Shown here piece after piece: positions 6,468 through 38,300 of a DNA stretch of 43,754 nt. Origin of the DNA: a virus (taxonomy: Duplodnaviria; Heunggongvirae; Uroviricota; Caudoviricetes); the IMG/VR virus record IMGVR_UViG_2778261353_000008. One strand, 5' to 3'. A program made the position numbers and the translations under genes. Within the stretch, counting starts at the first letter, position 1. The number at the start of each line of letters is the position of its first letter. Below the pieces are notes generated by a model, which was given only the letters and a program-made list of their open reading frames with translations, ran no database searches and was not told where the DNA came from.

Positions 6468-6595
6468 ACGGATAGTCCTGGTATTGTTCCATCACATCCT
6501 GAGGATGCTCTTCGAACTCTTCAAATTCTTCTTCCATATATCACCTCAAATAAGTGGTTTGCTGCCTAATTTTATTTTCTGGCGACCAACACAAG

Positions 6596-6868
6596 TCACC
6601 TTGCTGTCAGTTGTTTTGATTTCCTGTAGCCTGCCGCGTAAAGAGCTACATTTGGAAGACAAGTTGAGCCTTCATATTTTCTGGTCAACGTTGTCAGTGT
6701 TATTACTTCTGCTCTCATTGCTGGTTTGCGCTTGCATTGCAAGACCACTCGAGAGGGGGTTGGTCTGTGTAGCTTGTCGGAGCTAATCGCCTCCTGACTT
6801 TGCAGGTTTGCGCGACGAGCTCTACGACGAGAAGCTGAGGTGCCTTTAAATTCTGTTTTTCTGGACAT
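6596..6868 (-). CDS. N: Antitermination protein N (P22 gp24-like, non-lambda)
   Basis: ORF 6596..6952 trimmed to Met preceded by GGGAGG RBS; arginine-rich motif SASRRRARRA near N-terminus; C-terminus LPNVALYAAGYRKSKQLTAR resembles P22 gp24 C-terminus; sits between ral and pL. Confidence 0.8.
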   Translation of the reverse strand: MSRKTEFKGTSASRRRARRANLQSQEAISSDKLHRPTPSRVVLQCKRKPAMRAEVITLTTLTRKYEGSTCLPNVALYAAGYRKSKQLTAR

Positions 6869-6966
6869 AGATTCCTCCCGAATAAACTTTGGTGATGCAA
6901 TCTCGAAGCTCCTCCTGAGACGGTTGCTTCGGCATTGCATCCCACAGCTCATGTGGTTGGGTGATC

Positions 6967-7013
6967 TGGCTTTTCAGCCACGTAGTCGAGAGTTCGACGT
7001 TGTTTAAAGAGCC
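6967..7013 (-). promoter_or_regulatory. Putative nutL (boxA-like GGCUCUUUAA followed by boxB-like hairpin UGGCUGAAAAGCCA)
   Basis: Seen on reverse complement between pL candidate and N start; boxB loop GAAAA as in lambda; stem differs from nutR by compensatory changes (GGC/GCC vs CGC/GCG). Confidence 0.5.
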
Positions 7014-7051
7014 TGCCAGTCTGTTCCGTTTGGCTTCCAGCGTCCTGCTGA

Positions 7052-7087
7052 CGGTTAAATAGTACGATATGTACTTTATTGGGTCAA
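7052..7087 (-). promoter_or_regulatory. Putative pL with operator OL1
   Basis: On minus strand: -35 TTGACC, 17-nt spacer, -10 TACTAT; palindrome AGTACATATCGTACT (7061..7075) overlaps spacer and -10 and closely matches a site in the pR candidate. Confidence 0.5.
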
Positions 7088-7272
7088 TACGATTTGTTCT
7101 AAAATGGGGTGATTTTTTATAACACTTTGTATTTAATAGTGTTGTTTTTTAGCGTGGGTGTATCGCCTCGGCGATGTAAGGAGAGATCAGAATTGCGTGG
7201 TTTAGTGAGTTGTATCTATTTATTTTTCAATAAATACATTTGGTTATGTGTCTTTAGATGGGGGCGTGAGGC

Positions 7273-7300
7273 AAAGAAAACCCGGCGCTGAGGCCGGGTG
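7273..7300 (-). terminator. t_imm-like rho-independent terminator ending the cI operon
   Basis: CCCGGC..GCCGGG stem followed on the minus-strand RNA by UUUUCUUUG; surrounding ~120 nt match the lambda sequence I recall between OL and rexB. Confidence 0.6.
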
Positions 7301-7308
7301 GGGTTTTG

Positions 7309-7479
7309 TTATTGGTGCATTTGGCAGACTGTAGTATCAGGTCCATAAGCCAAAGTAAAAACAGGCTTGTTGATCAATCCGTTGTTCTTTAATGATTGAA
7401 TCATTTTACCTTGCTCGCTAACTTTTTGCTTGCTAAGTATTTCTGCCACTTGCTGTGTCAGTGATTTGTCTTTGCTCAT
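7309..7479 (-). CDS. Small ORF (56 aa) translationally coupled to the upstream peptidase-like gene
   Basis: Hand-translated MSKDKSLTQQVAEILSKQKVSEQGKMIQSLKNNGLINKPVFTLAYGPDTTVCQMHQ; its ATG directly follows the TAA of the 300-aa gene (TAAATG); ends 9 nt before the t_imm hairpin; below ORF-track cut-off. Confidence 0.45.
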   Translation of the reverse strand: MSKDKSLTQQVAEILSKQKVSEQGKMIQSLKNNGLINKPVFTLAYGPDTTVCQMHQ

Positions 7480-8382
7480 TTATGACTCACTTTGTTCTGA
7501 GAAGGGGAATGAAGACAGAACAAGAACCTGTCGATTTGTCTTATACATGTATTCATTAATGACGTTGTGCAGATTTTTTAACGCCATGCTAAAATCTTTG
7601 TCGTATGTAAAGTCTTCTACTTTAATTCTTAAGTCATTGATAAGAGTATTTATTCCTATCGTTCTTCCGTGAGAATGCCACTTTCCGTTGTCACTAAGAG
7701 CGGTAGCGATCATTTTAGCTCTCGCTTCTTTTTCCCTCTTGGAAACTAGCTTTCCTCGTTTTGTGTTACCTTGATGAACCGTCCACTCTCTGAATTTATA
7801 CTCTACAAGCCACTTCTTAAGCAAGTCTATTGATAGCTCTCTGGCTTGCTCGTATCTCCTTAAGTGCGCAAGATCTAACTGACTAAGCATCATTAGTTCA
7901 GCTTGGGTAATGGTTCCTTCTCTGGATTTAGTAATCATTTCTTCAACTTTATCAAGGTATCCCAAAGCAGGAACCCATTTACCGTCAGAGGATTGCACTT
8001 GAGGGTCAATGGGGCCTAATGAAGAAGCATAGTTCATGTAAATTTTATCTCCAGACATACACCATATTGTGCCTGCCGACATGGCCATATCTGGAATGAT
8101 AAAATATACCTCTTGATAGAAATGCCTTGTAATTTCTACCATTTTTTCCACAGACTCAACAGAGCCACCATTTGTATTGAGTATAATAACTAGAAATCTA
8201 TTGGTACGACTGTTAGCCATCTCCCCAATAGCCTCAAGTTTTGGTTGGTAAACTTCTTTTGACCATGGAAAGATACCACCGTAGTACGCTATGACGTCGC
8301 AGCTTGGGAAAAAGTTATTTTTAAATTGCTCTAACTGCCAAGAAATGTATGTTTCTAGTGTTGAATCAAGATTTTGGCTCAT
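7480..8382 (-). CDS. Clp-fold serine-peptidase-like protein (S49/SDH-family-like) in the rexAB slot
   Basis: 300 aa; motifs VIILNTNGGSVESVEKMVEI, IIPDMAMSAGT (putative Ser nucleophile), SSLGPIDPQ; immediately downstream of cI on the same strand; AT-rich; family assignment is from motif memory only. Confidence 0.6.
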   Translation of the reverse strand: MSQNLDSTLETYISWQLEQFKNNFFPSCDVIAYYGGIFPWSKEVYQPKLEAIGEMANSRTNRFLVIILNTNGGSVESVEKMVEITRHFYQEVYFIIPDMAMSAGTIWCMSGDKIYMNYASSLGPIDPQVQSSDGKWVPALGYLDKVEEMITKSREGTITQAELMMLSQLDLAHLRRYEQARELSIDLLKKWLVEYKFREWTVHQGNTKRGKLVSKREKEARAKMIATALSDNGKWHSHGRTIGINTLINDLRIKVEDFTYDKDFSMALKNLHNVINEYMYKTNRQVLVLSSFPFSEQSES

Positions 8383-8454
8383 GTGATACCTTGCTATATC
8401 AACAATTTACAATAACATGTTGCACTATCGGTTTTTTATTAATCACAATTGGAA

Positions 8455-9114
8455 TTACCCAAACGTCTCTTCAGGCCACTGACTAGCGATAACTTTCCCC
8501 ACAACGGAACAACTCTCATTGCATGGGATCATTGGGTATTGTGGGTTTAGTGGCTGTAGAAACACCTGACCGCTATCCCTGATCAGTTTCTTGAAGGTAA
8601 ATTCATCACCACCAAGTCTGGCTATGCAGAAATCGCCGGGCTCAACAGCTTGCTCAGGGTCAACCAGAATTAACATCCCGTCAGGAAAACTGGGTTTGGA
8701 ACCTGTTGGTGCGGTCATTGAGTTACCTTCAACCTCAAGCCAGAATGCAGAGTCACTGGCTTTTTTGGTTGTGCTTACCAATCTCTCCGCATCGCCTTTG
8801 GTAAAGGTTCTGAGTTCTGGAGAGAACATCCCAGCCTGAACATGAGAAAATACAGGGTACTCATATTGTTTTTTAACTGGGGCCGATGAGTATTCGCCAA
8901 CAGGTGAAAATGTCCCGTCGTGGTTGAATGATATGTTATCAATACCAAGGTATTTAAACACCAAACCAATATCACTAAGAGATGGATGACGAGATCCGCG
9001 CAACCAGTGTCCAATCCCACCCTGCGTCATACCTAGCTCTTCGGCTAACTTCTCTTGAGTTATGCCGAGCTCTTTCATTCTGGATCTAGCCAGTTCATAC
9101 CATTTCATTTTCAT
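8455..9114 (-). CDS. cI: CI-type prophage repressor (HTH-XRE N-terminus, LexA/S24-like C-terminal domain)
   Basis: ORF 8455..9156 trimmed to Met with AAGGA RBS ([37 protein letters not shown]...); C-terminal [13 protein letters not shown]...[23 protein letters not shown] resembles P22 C2 / lambda CI autocleavage domain; divergent from cro across an operator region. Confidence 0.88.
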
Positions 9115-9169
9115 GTCCTTATTATTACGCTCTGTACTGGAACCATCCATGCACAATGTGTATTTTTGC

Positions 9170-9198
9170 TTGTATTTGGAAAGTACATATTGTATTTT
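9170..9198 (+). promoter_or_regulatory. Putative pR with operator OR1
   Basis: -35 TTGTAT, 17-nt spacer, -10 TATTTT, GGAGG RBS and cro ATG ~27 nt downstream; operator AGTACATATTGTATT (9182..9196) nearly identical to the OL site. Confidence 0.5.
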
Positions 9199-9224
9199 TT
9201 ATTCGAGGTTACTATGGAGGGCAT

Positions 9225-9440
9225 ATGAGCAACCTACGAAAATATCGAGAGTCACTGAATATCTCTCAAACAACACTTGCTAAGGCAGTTGGATGCACAC
9301 AGGGAGCTATCGGACATTGGGAATCTGGTCGTCGCTTCCCAGACCTTAAAACATGCCGTGCTCTTGTTGCGTGCCTAAATAAGTTAGGCGCAAAAGTAAG
9401 TCTTGATGACGTGTTCCCGCCGGAACACAAAGCCGCTTAA
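9225..9440 (+). CDS. cro: Cro-like repressor (HTH-XRE), 71 aa
   Basis: ORF 9156..9440 trimmed to Met MSNLRKYRESLNISQTTLAKAVGCTQGAIGHWESGRRFPDLKTCRALVACLN... preceded by GGAGG; divergent from cI. Confidence 0.8.
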   Translation: MSNLRKYRESLNISQTTLAKAVGCTQGAIGHWESGRRFPDLKTCRALVACLNKLGAKVSLDDVFPPEHKAA

Positions 9441-9451
9441 TAAGCGGAGCC

Positions 9452-9497
9452 GCTCTTTGTAACAACGGACATTCGTCCTACGTCGCTGAAAAGCGAG
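9452..9497 (+). promoter_or_regulatory. Putative nutR (boxA CGCTCTTTG, boxB-like hairpin TCGCTGAAAAGCGA)
   Basis: Located between cro and cII; boxA matches the CGCTCTT(T)A consensus; boxB loop GAAAA as in lambda. Confidence 0.5.
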
Positions 9498-9581
9498 TCC
9501 CAAGATATCTGACCAACTAAGGCCATATGCGTTTCCACGCATACCTTTCAACTAACTATTCACTATTGGAAATCTTAAGAA

Positions 9582-9878
9582 ATGGAAAGAACAAGTTACA
9601 GCAAACTATCACAACGTGACGTTGATCGCGCAGAAACAGATTTACTTATCAATCTGTCAACTATTACCCAGCGCGGTCTGGCAAAGATGATTGGCTGTCA
9701 TGAATCGAAGATAAGCAGAACGGACTGGCGGTTTATTGCTTCGGTCTTGTGTGCTTTCGGAATGGCATCAGACATCAGTCCAATTAGCAGGGCTTTTAAG
9801 TATGCGCTTGATGGAATCACAAAAAAAAAATCCCCGGTGGCCGCCGGGGACTCTAAGCAAATTGATATGCAATTCTGA
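9582..9878 (+). CDS. cII: CII-like transcriptional activator
   Basis: 98 aa; HTH region (GLAKMIGCHESKISRTDWRF) and C-terminus KKKSPVAAGDSKQIDMQF parallel lambda CII (KKRPAATERSEQIQMEF). Confidence 0.75.
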   Translation: MERTSYSKLSQRDVDRAETDLLINLSTITQRGLAKMIGCHESKISRTDWRFIASVLCAFGMASDISPISRAFKYALDGITKKKSPVAAGDSKQIDMQF

Positions 9879-14674: not shown

Positions 14675-15199
14675 TTATTGTTTAACCCATAATAATTCAT
14701 TGACATTGAATCCCAACTTTTGAGCGGTTCGCACATAGTCTGCTTTTACTTTATCTGGAATAGTTGGGGTCCTTGCCAGAATCCATAGGTATTCTCTGTT
14801 CGGACCACTGACAAGAGCATACTTATACTCATCATCCAGTTTGATTACATTATAGCCACCATAGAAGGGGCCAAAAAACGAAACCTTCAATGCTGCAGTT
14901 TTAGTATCTCCAGTAAAGTATGCTTTACCTTCGCTCTCGCTCCATTTATTTTTCGTTGGATCGTATCCACGGTTAAGTACACGAATCCCTCCGTCGTTCC
15001 GTTTTCCATAAGTAGCGCTGACCTGTTCCAGACCACGTTCGAACCGGTTCTCGAGGCGAGCTATTTCATACCATTTTCCGAGGTAGCGGTTGGCGTCAAA
15101 ATTTGTAATCGGCTGCACACCTTTAGGTGGTGTCGGGGCCTTACATGCTATAAGAGTGAAAGAGAGTGCAATGCCAGTCAACACAGGCCATAACTTCAT
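14675..15199 (-). CDS. blc: Blc-like bacterial lipocalin (outer-membrane lipoprotein)
   Basis: 174 aa; lipoprotein signal with lipobox LIAC; strong similarity to E. coli Blc as I recall it (NFDANRYLGKWYEIARLENRFERGLEQVSATY...YFTG...AALKVSFFGPFYGGYNVI...YLWILARTP). Confidence 0.85.
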   Translation of the reverse strand: MKLWPVLTGIALSFTLIACKAPTPPKGVQPITNFDANRYLGKWYEIARLENRFERGLEQVSATYGKRNDGGIRVLNRGYDPTKNKWSESEGKAYFTGDTKTAALKVSFFGPFYGGYNVIKLDDEYKYALVSGPNREYLWILARTPTIPDKVKADYVRTAQKLGFNVNELLWVKQ

Positions 15200-15391: not shown

Positions 15392-16351
15392 ATGATAAAA
15401 AAACCTGTGATTGGAATCAGCGGTTGTTTGGCCGGTTCTGCTGTTCGTTTTGATGGTGGTCACAAAAGAGCTGACTTTTTAATGGACAAATTAGTGGAAT
15501 GGGTAACATTCAGACCAGTATGTCCGGAAATGGCTATAGGGCTGCCAGTTCCGCGTCCTGCTCTACGTCTTGTGCGCTCGATGCAAGGAAATATACGGAT
15601 GTGTTTCAGCCACGACCAGAATGAGGATGTGACAGAGAGAATGACAGAGTTTAGTCGTTCTTATATGGACAAATTAAAGGATGTATCGGGGTTTGTGGTT
15701 TGTGCTAAATCTCCCAGCTGTGGCATGGAGCGCGTGCGTGTCTATGATGAAAATGGTAATCGAGGTCGTAAAGATGGAGTGGGACTATTTACGAGCACTT
15801 TGATGGAAAAGTTTTCCTGGCTACCGGTTGAAGAGGATGGGCGATTACATGATCCAGTGCTTCGTGAGAATTTTGTTGAAAGAGTTTTTGCTTTGCATGA
15901 GCTCAATCACCTTTACAAGGAGAAATTATCAAGAAGAGAGTTATTAGCTTTTCATAGTCGTTATAAGCTTCAGTTGTTGGCGCATAGTCAGGCAGGCTAT
16001 AAAGATATGGGACCATTTGTGGCTGCAATACACGAGTGGGCGGACCTTGAATCATACTTTGAGGTGTATCGTGATAAGCTGATGGCGATTCTCAGAAAAC
16101 CTGCATCACGTAAAAATCACACGAATGTGCTGATGCATATACAGGGGTATTTTAGTAACTACTTAAGTACACGCCAGCGTAAAGAGTTGAGCGAGGTTAT
16201 ACTTAACTATCGTTCTGGCACATTACCTCTTCTTGCGCCGTTGACTCTGCTGAAGCATTATCTGGGTGAGTATCCTAATGATTACTTGCTTACACAGAAT
16301 TACTTCGATCCCTATCCGGACGAACTGGCTCTAAGACTGATGGTAAATTAA
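15392..16351 (+). CDS. DUF523/DUF1722 fusion protein (TudS-like N-terminal domain, YbgA-like C-terminal domain)
   Basis: 319 aa; N-terminal Cys in IGISGCLAG, PVCPE, AKSPSCGME consistent with Fe-S-binding DUF523/TudS-type proteins; C-terminal half YbgA-like; assignment from motif memory. Confidence 0.6.
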   Translation: MIKKPVIGISGCLAGSAVRFDGGHKRADFLMDKLVEWVTFRPVCPEMAIGLPVPRPALRLVRSMQGNIRMCFSHDQNEDVTERMTEFSRSYMDKLKDVSGFVVCAKSPSCGMERVRVYDENGNRGRKDGVGLFTSTLMEKFSWLPVEEDGRLHDPVLRENFVERVFALHELNHLYKEKLSRRELLAFHSRYKLQLLAHSQAGYKDMGPFVAAIHEWADLESYFEVYRDKLMAILRKPASRKNHTNVLMHIQGYFSNYLSTRQRKELSEVILNYRSGTLPLLAPLTLLKHYLGEYPNDYLLTQNYFDPYPDELALRLMVN

Positions 16352-20607: not shown

Positions 20608-24288
<3,681 letters not shown>

Positions 24289-24308
<20 letters not shown>

Positions 24309-25608
24309 TCTCCCGCATATTGCCAGCATGGCTTTTAATGAGCCGCTGATGCTTGAACCCGCCTATGCGCGGGTTTTCTTTTGTGCGCTTGCAGACCAGC
24401 TTGGGATCAGCCGCCTGACGGATGCAGTATCCGGCGACAGCCTGACTGCCGGAGAGGCACCCGCGGCGCTGGCGTTATCCGGTGATGATGACGGACCACG
24501 ACAGGCCCGCAGTTATCAGGTCATGAACGGCATCGCCGTGCTGCCGGTGTCCGGCACGCTGGTCAGCCGGACGCGGGCGCTGCAGCCGTATTCGGGGATG
24601 ACCGGTTACAACGGCATTATCGCCCGTCTGCAACAGGCTGCCAGTGACCCGATGGTGGACGGCATTCTGCTGGATATGGACACGCCCGGCGGAATGGTGG
24701 CAGGGGCATTTGACTGCGCTGACATCATCGCCCGTGTGCGAGACATAAAACCGGTATGGGCGCTGGCCAATGACATGAACTGCAGCGCAGGTCAGCTGCT
24801 TGCCAGTGCCGCCTCCCGGCGTCTGGTCACGCAGACCGCCCGGACAGGCTCCATCGGCGTCATGATGGCTCACAGTAATTACGGTGCTGCGCTGGAGAAA
24901 CAGGGTGTGGAAATCACGCTGATTTACAGCGGCAGCCATAAGGTGGATGGCAACCCCTACAGCCATCTACCGGATGATGTCCGGGAAACACTGCAGTCCC
25001 GGATGGATGCAACCCGCCGGATGTTTGCACAGAAAGTGTCGGCATATACCGGCCTGTCCGTGCAGGCTGTGCTGGATACCGAGGCTGCAGTGTACAGCGG
25101 TCAGGAGGCCATTGATGCCGGACTGGCTGATGAACTTGTTAACAGTACCGATGCGATCACCGTTATGCGTGATGCACTGGATGCACGTAAATCCCGTCTC
25201 TCAGGAGGGCGAATGACCAAAGAGACTCAATCAACAACTGTTTCAGCCACTGCTTCGCAGGCTGACGTTACTGACGTGGTGCCAGCGACGGAGGGCGAGA
25301 ACGCCAGCGCGGCGCAGCCGGACGTGAACGCGCAGATCACCGCAGCGGTTGCGGCAGAAAACAGCCGCATTATGGGGATCCTCAACTGTGAGGAGGCTCA
25401 CGGACGCGAAGAACAGGCACGCGTGCTGGCAGAAACCCCCGGTATGACCGTGAAAACGGCCCGCCGCATTCTGGCCGCAGCACCACAGAGTGCACAGGCG
25501 CGCAGTGACACTGCGCTGGATCGTCTGATGCAGGGGGCACCGGCACCGCTGGCTGCAGGTAACCCGGCATCTGATGCCGTTAACGATTTGCTGAACACAC
25601 CAGTGTAA
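24289..25608 (+). CDS. C: Prohead protease C (S49-type, GTG start)
   Basis: ORF 24154..25608 trimmed to the lambda GTG start (V)TAELRNLPHIASMAFNEPLML...; matches lambda gpC. Confidence 0.92.
25003..25608 (+). CDS. nu3: Scaffolding protein Nu3 (in-frame internal start within C)
   Basis: Internal Met at codon 239 of C (MDATRRMFAQKV...) corresponds to the lambda Nu3 start by co-linearity. Confidence 0.75.
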   Translation: MDATRRMFAQKVSAYTGLSVQAVLDTEAAVYSGQEAIDAGLADELVNSTDAITVMRDALDARKSRLSGGRMTKETQSTTVSATASQADVTDVVPATEGENASAAQPDVNAQITAAVAAENSRIMGILNCEEAHGREEQARVLAETPGMTVKTARRILAAAPQSAQARSDTALDRLMQGAPAPLAAGNPASDAVNDLLNTPV

Positions 25609-35375: not shown

Positions 35376-38300
35376 ATGGGTAAAGGCAGCAGTAAGGGGC
35401 ATACTCCGCGCGAAGCGAAGGACAACCTGAAGTCCACGCAGTTGCTGAGTGTGATCGATGCCATCAGCGAAGGGCCGGTTGAAGGTCCGGTGGATGGATT
35501 AAAAAGCGTGCTGCTGAACAGTACGCCAGTGCTGGACAGTGAGGGGAATACCAATATCTCCGGCGTCACGGTGGTGTTCCGGGCCGGTGAGCAGGAGCAG
35601 ACACCGCCGGAGGGATTTGAATCCTCCGGCTCCGAGACGGTGCTGGGTACGGAAGTGAAATACGACACGCCGATCACCCGGACCATCACGTCGGCAAACA
35701 TTGACCGACTGCGTTTTACCTTCGGCGTGCAGGCACTGGTGGAAACCACCTCAAAGGGGGACAGGAATCCGTCGGAAGTCCGCCTGCTGGTTCAGATCCA
35801 GCGTAATGGTGGCTGGGTGACGGAAAAAGACATCACCATTAAGGGCAAAACCACCTCGCAGTATCTGGCCTCGGTGGTGGTGGGTAACCTGCCGCCGCGC
35901 CCGTTCAATATCCGGATGCGCAGGATGACGCCGGACAGCACCACAGACCAGCTGCAGAACAAAACGCTCTGGTCGTCATACACCGAAATCATCGATGTGA
36001 AACAGGGCTACCCGAACACGGCACTGGTCGGCGTGCAGGTGGATTCGGAGCAGTTCGGCAGCCAGCAGGTGAGCCGTAATTATCATCTGCGCGGGCGCAT
36101 TCTGCAGGTGCCGTCGAGCTATAACCCGCAGACGCGGCAATACAGCGGTATCTGGGACGGAACGTTTAAGCCGGCATACAGCAACAACATGGCCTGGTGT
36201 CTGTGGGATATGCTGACCCATCCGCGCTACGGCATGGGGAAACGTCTTGGTGCGGCGGATGTGGACAAATGGGCGCTGTATGTCATCGGCCAGCATTGCG
36301 ATCAGTCGGTGCCGGACGGTTTTGGCGGCACGGAGCCGCGCATCACCTGTAATGCGTACCTGACCACACAGCGCAAGGCGTGGGATGTGCTCAGTGATTT
36401 CTGCTCTGCGATGCGCTGTATGCCGGTATGGAACGGGCAGACGCTGACGTTCGTGCAGGACCGACCGTCGGATAAGGTGTGGACCTATAACCGCAGTAAT
36501 GTGGTGATGCCGGATGATGGTGCGCCGTTCCGCTACAGCTTCAGCGCCCTGAAGGACCGCCATAATGCCGTTGAGGTGAACTGGATTGACCCGAATAACG
36601 GCTGGGAGACGGCGACAGAGCTTGTGGAGGACACGCAGGCCATTGCCCGTTACGGTCGTAACGTCACGAAGATGGATGCTTTTGGCTGTACCAGCCGGGG
36701 GCAGGCACACCGCGCCGGGCTGTGGCTGATTAAAACAGAACTGCTGGAAACGCAGACCGTGGACTTCAGCGTGGGTGCCGAAGGGCTTCGCCATGTACCG
36801 GGCGATGTCATTGAAATCTGCGATGATGACTATGCCGGTATCCGCACCGGCGGGCGCGTGCTGGCGGTAAACAGCCAGACCCGGACGCTGACGCTCGACC
36901 GTGAAATCACGCTGCCATCTTCCGGCACCACGCTGATAAGCCTGGTTGACGGGCAGGGGAGTCCGGTCAGCGTGGAGGTTCAGTCCGTCACCGACGGCGT
37001 GAAGGTGAAAGTGAGCCGTGTTCCTGACGGCGTTGCTGAATACAGCGTATGGGGGCTGAAGCTGCCGACGCTGCGCCAGCGCCTGTTCCGCTGCGTGAGT
37101 ATCCGTGAGAACGACGACGGCACGTATGCCATCACCGCCGTGCAGCATGTACCGGAAAAAGAGGCCATCGTGGATAACGGGGCGCACTTTGACGGCGACC
37201 AGAGCGGCACGGTAAATGGTGTCACGCCGCCAGCGGTGCAGCACCTGACCGCAGAAGTCACCGCAGACAGCGGGGAATACCAGGTGCTGGCCCGCTGGGA
37301 CACGCCGAAGGTGGTGAAGGGCGTGAGCTTCCTGCTTCGCCTGACCGTGGCAGCGGATGACGGCCGTGAGCGGCTGGTCAGCACGGCCCGGACGACGGAA
37401 ACCACTTACCGCTTCACACAACTGGCTCTGGGGAACTACAGGCTGACAGTCCGGGCAGTAAATGCGTGGGGGCAGCAGGGCGATCCGGCGTCGGTATCGT
37501 TCCGGATTGCCGCACCGGCAGCGCCGTCGCGGATTGAGCTGACGCCGGGCTATTTTCAGATAACCGCCACGCCGCATCTTGCGGTTTATGACCCGACGGT
37601 ACAGTTTGAGTTCTGGTTCTCGGAAAAACGGATTGCGGATATCAGGCAGGTTGAAACCAGCGCGCGTTATCTTGGTACGGCACTGTACTGGATAGCCGCC
37701 AGTATCAATATCAAACCGGGCCATGATTATTATTTTTACGTTCGCAGTGTGAACACCGTTGGCAAATCGGCATTCGTGGAGGCTGTCGGTCAGCCGAGTG
37801 ATGATGCATCAGGCTATCTGGATTTTTTCAAAGGAGAAATCGGGAAAACACATCTGGCCCAGGAGCTGTGGACGCAGATTGATAACGGTCAGCTTGCGCC
37901 GGACCTGGCTGAAATCAGGACGTCCATTACGAATGTCAGCAATGAAATCACGCAGACCGTCAATAAAAAACTGGAAAATCAGAGTGCGGCAATCCAGCAG
38001 ATACAGAAAGTTCAGGTTGATACAAATAATAACCTGAACAGCATGTGGGCCGTGAAACTGCAGCAGATGCAGGACGGACGCCTTTATATTGCGGGTATCG
38101 GTGCCGGTATTGAGAATACGCCAGCAGGAATGCAGAGTCAGGTGCTGCTGGCGGCAGACAGGATTGCGATGATTAATCCTGCGAATGGCAACACAAAGCC
38201 GATGTTTGTTGGTCAGGGCGATCAGATATTTATGAATGAAGTGTTCCTGAAATATCTGACGGCTCCCACCATTACCAGCGGCGGTAATCCTCCGGCATTT

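Follow-up and report, generated by a model that had tools for sequence, protein, structure and literature searches.

The window analysed here, which is the whole 43,754-nucleotide (nt) stretch of IMG/VR virus record IMGVR_UViG_2778261353_000008 (Caudoviricetes), carries a cassette of two genes between its cI-type repressor gene and its antiterminator gene N, encoding a serine peptidase of 300 amino acids (aa) and a protein of 56 aa. Comparison with related sequences indicates that this pair is a self-contained, conserved two-gene module which is pan-bacterial, and which away from prophages is a stand-alone mobile pair, sometimes found beside defence genes. This wide occurrence was unseen in an earlier note on the same DNA, made from the letters alone, which had placed the pair in the rexAB slot of the immunity region and predicted a role in superinfection exclusion or abortive infection. 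With about an even chance of being right, the reading favoured here is that the cassette is a prophage cargo module, expressed in the lysogen and acting against phages by abortive infection or exclusion, with a protease effector that is gated by its small partner.

The protease and its partner

The earlier note took the larger product for a Clp-fold serine peptidase, and profile search and structure prediction both support this. The protein matches Pfam family PF01972 SDH_protease (ClpP-like, SDH-type serine proteinase) with 41.0 bits against a gathering cut-off of 31.3, over residues 64–199, and its AlphaFold2 model, made with 34 homologues, has a ClpP fold at a predicted local distance difference test (pLDDT) score of 90.2 and a predicted template modelling (pTM) score of 0.87. 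The three motifs pointed out previously (NTNGGSVESV, DMAMSAGT and SLGPIDPQ) are present and lie within the most conserved blocks of the family. PF01972 is also precomputed on nearly all of the protease homologues, which number in thousands; the RefSeq name of the protein is 'SDH family Clp fold serine proteinase', and it falls in PHROG 11747 (E 2e-99), to which no function is assigned there. Matches below threshold were seen in Pfam to NfeD1b_N (28.9 bits versus a cut-off of 40) and to CLP_protease, and a sequence search for solved structures detected none. The NCBIfam equivalog NF047768 Clp_like_SDH is missed, at 54.5 bits against a curated cut-off of 250, and the protease therefore belongs to a divergent sister group outside that equivalog; the B-type and zinc-ribbon relatives described below miss it as well (57–95 bits).

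Family PF01972 is defined in Pfam by catalytic Ser, Asp and His residues in that sequence order. Ser102 (in MSAGT) and His238 (in WHSHGR) of the window protein are invariant and Asp126 (in GPIDPQ) is kept in 33 of the 34 homologues, and the same Ser, Asp and His are invariant in all three of the distant B-type sequences that were aligned. On this conservation, taken with the family definition, Ser102, Asp126 and His238 are a candidate catalytic triad. Ser102 also aligns with the Ser of MAASGG in Bacillus subtilis SppA, the nucleophile of that enzyme, at a similarity that is marginal (E 0.6–0.8). The protein has no membrane segment and is predicted to be cytoplasmic.

The 56-aa open reading frame (ORF), whose ATG follows directly on the protease TAA as the earlier note described, is, judging by its recurrence, a real gene and a near-obligate partner of the protease. 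Scanning a single genome for each species turned up the protease in 324 species, and when the best 80 loci were examined downstream, an ORF of 52–91 aa was seen to start −29 to +25 nt from the protease stop in 79 of them (one at +127). These best 80 loci come from Proteobacteria, Bacteroidota, Acidobacteria, Planctomycetes, Gemmatimonadota, Spirochaetota and Clostridia, with identities of 47–66%. A set of 168 loci, consisting of genome loci and 96 IMG/VR contigs and clustered at 90% protease identity, gave a match to the hidden Markov model (HMM) of the small protein directly downstream at 142 loci, or in 86 of 96 clusters, the remaining loci having a divergent small ORF; L086 is the sole locus with downstream sequence that is clearly without one. 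Close homologues of the partner follow the protease gene in another Escherichia coli prophage, in Kluyvera and in Klebsiella; the Edwardsiella partner gene is present and went uncalled in the annotation, and the Shewanella one lies at a non-phage chromosomal site.

The partner belongs to phrog_28875 (E 2e-30), and no Pfam family was found for it. A profile search retrieved 68 stand-alone homologues of 51–86 aa, which are all named 'hypothetical', lack Pfam domains and include no fusions. Two other candidate relationships were rejected: a match to Arg_repressor lies below the cut-off, is at chance level and is absent from relatives, and profile matches to designer pentatricopeptide repeat (PPR) proteins in the PDB add up noise from the repeats, no single stretch being significant.

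Modelled alone with AlphaFold2, the partner has helices at residues 7–17 and 22–32 followed by an unstructured tail, at a pLDDT of 71. This tail is conserved (G34-L-I-N-K-P-V-F-T-L-A-Y-G-P47), its motif reading P-x-F-x-L-A-Y-G-P in enterics and Y-x-L-P-x-x-D-T-I-G-K/R in most other phyla. That it is conserved and yet disordered in the model suggests that this segment takes up its fold on a partner.

Related subfamilies

A sister subfamily, here called B-type as distinct from the A-type of the window, consists of SDH proteases that share 26–30% identity with the window protease and begin with MPxWxEIL. Its carriers are Porphyromonas phages, a Shewanella Mu-like phage, Gordonia phage BeeGee and 52 IMG/VR contigs, and in one E. 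coli prophage a B-type gene lies between Q and the lysis genes; the B-type loci are L177 2544–3771, L178 2583–3840, L015 4809–5771, L179–L230 and L231 8602–9725. The small B-type partner, of 56–145 aa, is encoded upstream of the protease with a gap of −7 to +10 nt and in a subset ends in Q-F-S-L-Y-D; comparison of the A-type and B-type partner families with hhalign detected no relation (probability 0.1%). In the Porphyromonas phage of locus L177, a HicAB pair (1744–2406) precedes the B-type protease.

In a more distant GPIDAQ subfamily, a C-terminal zinc-ribbon-like CxxC...CxxC extension replaces the separate partner.

Position in the rexAB slot

The cassette is bounded at 7300 and 8458, and reaches from the lambda-like 3′ part of cI to the t_imm region. 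By blastn, 8459–8865 is 94% identical to lambda cI at 37231–37637, the 3′ two-thirds of that gene, and 7181–7299 is 90% identical over 119 nt to lambda 35708–35825, a stretch that starts at the rexB stop. Because the flanks match lambda cI and post-rexB DNA, the cassette lies exactly in the place of rexA-rexB, which bears out both the slot and the t_imm match named in the earlier note; the ORF coordinates, the 72-nt gap, the TAAATG junction and the hairpin were likewise where it had put them (Table 1).

The note's terminator for the lysogenic unit was also recovered, as a stem-loop at 7280–7299 of seven pairs, six of them G-C, followed by TTTCTTTG on the minus strand, with a folding z-score of only −1.7. 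A promoter scan of 7300–9240 found no promoter-like site on the minus strand, and an Rfam search of 6500–9600 found nothing. The 72-nt leader holds an AAGG Shine-Dalgarno sequence about 7 nt ahead of the protease ATG, and is conserved in close copies of the cassette only.

The AT-richness to which the earlier note drew attention is real, the guanine plus cytosine (GC) content being 38.1% in the cassette against 50.7% in the whole window and 55.6% in the late genes, but it is not specific to the cassette, because the neighbouring early-left region is AT-rich too (42.3%).

Different cargo follows the same cI in other phages, namely rexAB in lambda, a 185-aa protein with DUF1828 in ev017 and a 173-aa protein in Stx2-1717. 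A cI of identical type (96–98% identity) is present in ev017, ev207 and many Stx phages. The repressor itself is a hybrid, its S24 part being close to lambda cI in DNA and its N-terminal DNA-binding part having no lambda DNA match; its start is at 9150 in RefSeq (231 aa, LexA family protein, identical gene) and at 9114 in the ORF list.

Table 1. Coordinates of the cassette and the adjoining features in the window.
Feature	Coordinates	Strand	Evidence
cI-type prophage repressor (HTH_3 + Peptidase_S24), first gene of presumed lysogenic transcript	8455..9150	-	Pfam S24 99.7 bits, HTH_3 43.3 bits; blastn to lambda 37231-37637
Leader of 72 nt, from cI stop to protease ATG	8383..8454	-	Sequence; promoter scan
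300-aa cytoplasmic SDH-type ClpP-fold serine peptidase, candidate catalytic Ser102/Asp126/His238	7480..8382	-	
56-aa partner protein, ATG abutting protease TAA (TAAATG)	7309..7479	-	phrog_28875, HMM, AlphaFold2 model
Intrinsic-terminator-like hairpin, lambda t_imm region, bidirectional in form	7273..7300	-	Terminator scan, fold, lambda homology
Left cassette flank, 119 nt, 90% identical to lambda 35708-35825	7181..7299	.	blastn, lambda annotation
Antiterminator N gene, far end of cI-N cargo slot	6599..6952	-	Pfam N_peptide 110 bits

The N ORF is intact in the window; in CE0007a, RefSeq gives a hypothetical protein and a frameshifted pseudogene at that place. Two further genes of the window are non-phage cargo of the nin/Q region, a lipocalin-like gene at 14678–15199 (minus strand; Lipocalin_2, 149.7 bits) and a 2-thiouracil desulfurase/DUF1722 gene at 15392–16348 (plus strand).

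Distribution and genomic context

The cassette is rare in E. coli, being present in 17 of 5,426 complete genomes, where blastn at distant settings found no further A-type genes, and no close homologues were found among 50,697 phage records. In Enterobacterales and Pasteurellaceae the pair lies directly after a prophage repressor, and the repressors are diverse: several S24/HTH (helix-turn-helix) immunity types, a 137-aa HTH protein and, in a Rac-like Klebsiella prophage, a 155-aa non-S24 CI. Unrelated repressors precede the pair in E. coli (L002), Kluyvera (L004), Klebsiella (L005–8) and Edwardsiella (L012), and further repressor-linked copies are L017, L023, L103, L105, L106, L115, L117, L120 and L133. 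Peptidase_S24 is the upstream neighbour at 15 of 91 non-redundant loci, the other neighbours being heterogeneous and often housekeeping genes, and about 80% of the non-redundant copies are not directly beside a phage repressor. The identity of 47–66% across distant phyla, together with these heterogeneous neighbours, supports mobility of the pair.

An upstream gene on the same strand was found at 67 of 91 loci and a downstream one at 35 of 95. Co-direction is far more frequent upstream, and transcription units tend to finish with the pair. The defence genes that adjoin some of the copies include Type III and Type II methyltransferases, DrmD, BrxH, SngC, PD-Lambda-5_B, dGTPase and JetC, as well as a Type I S subunit and PDC-S03, PDC-S04 and PDC-S11. 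Contexts of phage-inducible chromosomal islands (PICIs) were sought in 169 loci, and only four integrase-adjacent copies were found, in metagenomic viral contigs; three short IMG/VR contigs considered as PICIs were rejected, as they are lambdoid immunity regions.

Traces of how the pair has moved are visible in two kinds of rearrangement. In E. coli 2015C-3121 (L002), a gene for a small membrane protein stands between cI and the pair, and both there (7083–7190) and in L100 a 21-nt remnant, CCTGAAGAGACGTTTGGGTGA, of the 3′ end of a lambda-type cI is found ahead of the protease gene; the repressor of the L002 prophage differs from the lambda-type cI whose remnant remains. The remnant therefore points to transfer by recombination inside cI and to an ancestral cI-cassette unit. 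In three E. coli genomes, such as FHI_NMBU_10 (L014, 5009–5179), the small gene stands alone directly after cI; the protease and membrane-protein genes are cleanly gone, and the junction keeps the final ~13 nt of the former. Orphan partner genes were thus seen, and no matching orphan protease genes.

Some copies have further neighbours or carriers that may be recorded here. In the 2015C-3121-type prophage, a HicA/HicB toxin-antitoxin pair (L002, 5303–5892) lies directly past the cassette terminator. The 111-kb plasmid pSM107_MCR, named for mcr (L003; NZ_CP130669.1, 31446–44627), has the same lambdoid exo/bet-cI-cassette-nin region, with a cassette that is 100% identical, and this suggests a cointegrate involving a prophage or a phage-plasmid. 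In the Edwardsiella prophage, a 1,233-aa RVT_1 (reverse transcriptase) protein is encoded near the cassette, just past the N gene (L012, 8480–12181); a reverse transcriptase of the defence-associated kind may share the hotspot there.

Proposed function and alternatives

The cassette is cargo of the cI-N hotspot, with no promoter detected before it and a terminator after it, and a lysogen-expressed anti-phage module is therefore favoured. In a lysogen, transcripts from the repressor promoter would read through into the pair, as they do into rexAB and bstA, and abortive infection or exclusion would guard the lysogen from other phages. The effector would be the protease, and the tail of the partner might, at a guess, bind in or near the substrate groove as a pseudo-substrate, an antitoxin-like gate or a sensor. 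Infection would then remove or displace the partner, upon which the protease could cut an essential protein of the host or the phage. Also counted in favour of this reading are the recurrence of the pair after unrelated repressors, its patchy occurrence in E. coli, the PADLOC defence gene that directly adjoins about 15% of loci, the near-constant presence of the partner, the protein P0258, in which the protease and two copies of the tail motif are naturally fused, and the listing of an SDH_sah pair as a defence system in DefenseFinder. The orphan partners, seen without orphan proteases, agree with a toxin-antitoxin-like asymmetry, and SppA and 1510-N, by the titles of their PDB entries, offer precedents within the fold. 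A bolder version, which we put forward tentatively and consider rather doubtful, is that the A-type pair is a conflict module distinct from the catalogued DefenseFinder system FS_HP_SDH_sah and pan-bacterial, in which the disordered tail gates a Ser/Asp/His protease, and that it has been captured repeatedly into repressor operons for abortive infection.

Several observations weigh against an anti-phage protease module. Outside Enterobacterales most copies sit among ordinary chromosomal genes, and the figure of about 15% of loci beside a PADLOC defence gene counts just the two flanking genes and stands without a matched control. Neither protein matched any family of PADLOC-DB v2 at E values up to 1. 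The candidate triad has its own exceptions: position 126 is Val in one homologue (P0049), and in the fusion protein P0258 Leu stands at the position of His238, so that this fusion may be catalytically dead. P0258 and the GPIDAQ subfamily were noted among the proteins P0258, P0243, P0248, P0251 and P0269.

The closest rival has the pair as a toxin-antitoxin or addiction module, with the protease as toxin and the small protein as antitoxin, stabilising the prophage or mobile element and having no direct action on phages; we consider this unlikely. It would account for the tight coupling of an enzyme with a small protein, for the mobility of the pair across phyla and contexts, and for the persistence of the small gene without the protease in three genomes, since orphan partners without orphan proteases fit a toxin-antitoxin-like asymmetry; HicAB adjoins the pair in L002, and ietAS offers a precedent for a serine-protease toxin (PMC13069673). 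The partner has no recognisable DNA-binding antitoxin domain, however, and the slot after cI is typical of exclusion genes (bioRxiv 10.1101/2020.07.13.199331); nor are roles in defence and as a toxin-antitoxin pair exclusive of each other. A processing pair, in which the protease would mature its partner by cutting the tail and the product would serve in signalling, in regulating the lysis-lysogeny decision or as a small effector, appears decidedly unlikely. The tail is conserved and extended, the pair adjoins cI, and ClpP-fold relatives act on co-encoded partners or tails, to go by the titles of the SppA (PDB 4kwb) and 1510-N (PDB 2deo) structures. Against this, the partner has no signal peptide, no export gene or modification enzymes lie nearby, and, as about 80% of non-redundant copies are away from a repressor, the phage switch cannot be essential to the function.

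That the genes are instead a host-fitness moron unrelated to phages, with a protease that alters the stress tolerance, envelope or virulence of the lysogen, is in our view very improbable. Other non-phage cargo in the window (the lipocalin and the 2-thiouracil desulfurase/DUF1722 protein) and the many homologues amid housekeeping genes would agree with it, but the protein is cytoplasmic with an obligate small partner, defence genes adjoin some copies, and patchiness of the kind seen in E. coli combined with cross-phylum mobility is more typical of conflict systems. Least probable by far is that an S49/ClpP-type protease for virion morphogenesis (prohead or scaffold) is encoded here. Head maturation proteases are matched weakly in PHROG and NCBIfam (E 1e-6 to 2e-5), which hints at it, but these scores are far under the cut-offs (Clp_rel_HeadMat 24.6 bits versus 120) and the cassette belongs to the immunity region and the lysogenic strand. 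We excluded this candidate on the grounds that the phage has its own lambda-type gpC (Peptidase_S49, 149.9 bits, 24154–25605) and that the family occurs away from surrounding phage genes.

Significance

A defence gene in a prophage after cI is already expected and the protein family is already named, and the surprise is for these reasons moderate. What the pair adds is a ClpP-fold Ser/Asp/His peptidase that almost always comes with a partner of about 60 aa, whose tail is disordered when modelled alone, at about 50% identity across phyla that include Planctomycetes. If it is a defence system, it would be a compact (~1.1 kb) protease-based addition to the repressor-operon cargo of temperate phages and a natural replacement of rexAB in a lambda-like background, which would ease isogenic tests. 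The role of the tail and the substrate of the protease, once known, would establish a new logic of regulation among ClpP-fold enzymes, and might also account for how the catalogued SDH_sah system works. Should the bolder version above be true, the pair would represent a new protease-based immune mechanism and a new family of small-protein regulators.

Comparison with known systems

The earlier note did not recognise the pair as a described exclusion or defence system. This holds in so far as PADLOC gave no match and the literature searched contains no published function or mechanism for the protease-partner family, the papers on DefensePredictor, domain-centric discovery, P2/P4 hotspots and SatelliteFinder making no mention of it; it does not hold in so far as a RefSeq name exists and DefenseFinder lists FS_HP_SDH_sah. 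The single-gene tail assembly inhibition system Tai (PMC11364771), which DefenseFinder does not recognise, was considered and rejected as a different system.

Among ClpP-fold enzymes, SppA (S49) was solved with its own C-termini in the active sites (title of PDB 4kwb), and by the title of PDB 2deo the specificity of the NfeD protease 1510-N is for a homologue of stomatin. SppA and NfeD/1510-N are membrane-associated housekeeping enzymes with a Ser-Lys dyad, whereas the window protein has no membrane segment and a candidate Ser/Asp/His arrangement. A parallel in logic is ietAS, a defence system of a serine protease and an ATPase whose original description was of a toxin-antitoxin pair that stabilises a plasmid (PMC13069673). 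It shares with the window pair the link to mobile elements and, as proposed here, a protease effector held in check by a partner. The two differ in kind, IetS being a subtilisin-like protease and IetA an AAA ATPase, and neither protein is homologous to the window pair, for which PADLOC gave no ietAS match.

In position, the closest counterparts are lambda rexA-rexB, which occupy the identical slot between cI and t_imm/N on the lysogenic strand and are also two genes, and bstA of Salmonella phage BTP1, in the same type of slot downstream of a prophage repressor. The cI-N interval is a mosaic hotspot, and the abortive-infection genes rexAB and bstA use the repressor promoter; RexB is a reported membrane ion channel and RexA its intracellular sensor (bioRxiv 10.1101/2020.07.13.199331). 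No relation in sequence or fold links the cassette to rexAB or bstA, its candidate effector being a soluble serine peptidase, and searches of Pfam, NCBIfam and PHROG found no homology to RexA or RexB, with matches only to protease families or families of unknown function.

By its composition the pair is closest to FS_HP_SDH_sah, a DefenseFinder system named for a hypothetical protein and an SDH protein, with the gene model SDH_sah, which our source gives by name only (PMC13532340). The likeness is one of make-up, two genes for an SDH-type (PF01972) ClpP-fold protease and an unannotated small protein on an enterobacterial mobile element, and the match is at the level of the domain only, through the Pfam SDH domain from which the system takes its name. 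FS_HP_SDH_sah reportedly originates from the PICI accessory regions described by Fillol-Salom et al. in Cell in 2022 and is said to have been validated experimentally; we know of no mechanism for it. Its carrier would accordingly be a PICI accessory region, as opposed to the cI-N slot of a lambdoid prophage in the window. The gene orders also differ, in that the partner is downstream in the window and upstream in the B-type pairs, which come closer to the order in the name 'HP_SDH_sah'. The cassette could nonetheless be a plain member of FS_HP_SDH_sah, carried in this instance in the place of rexA-rexB.

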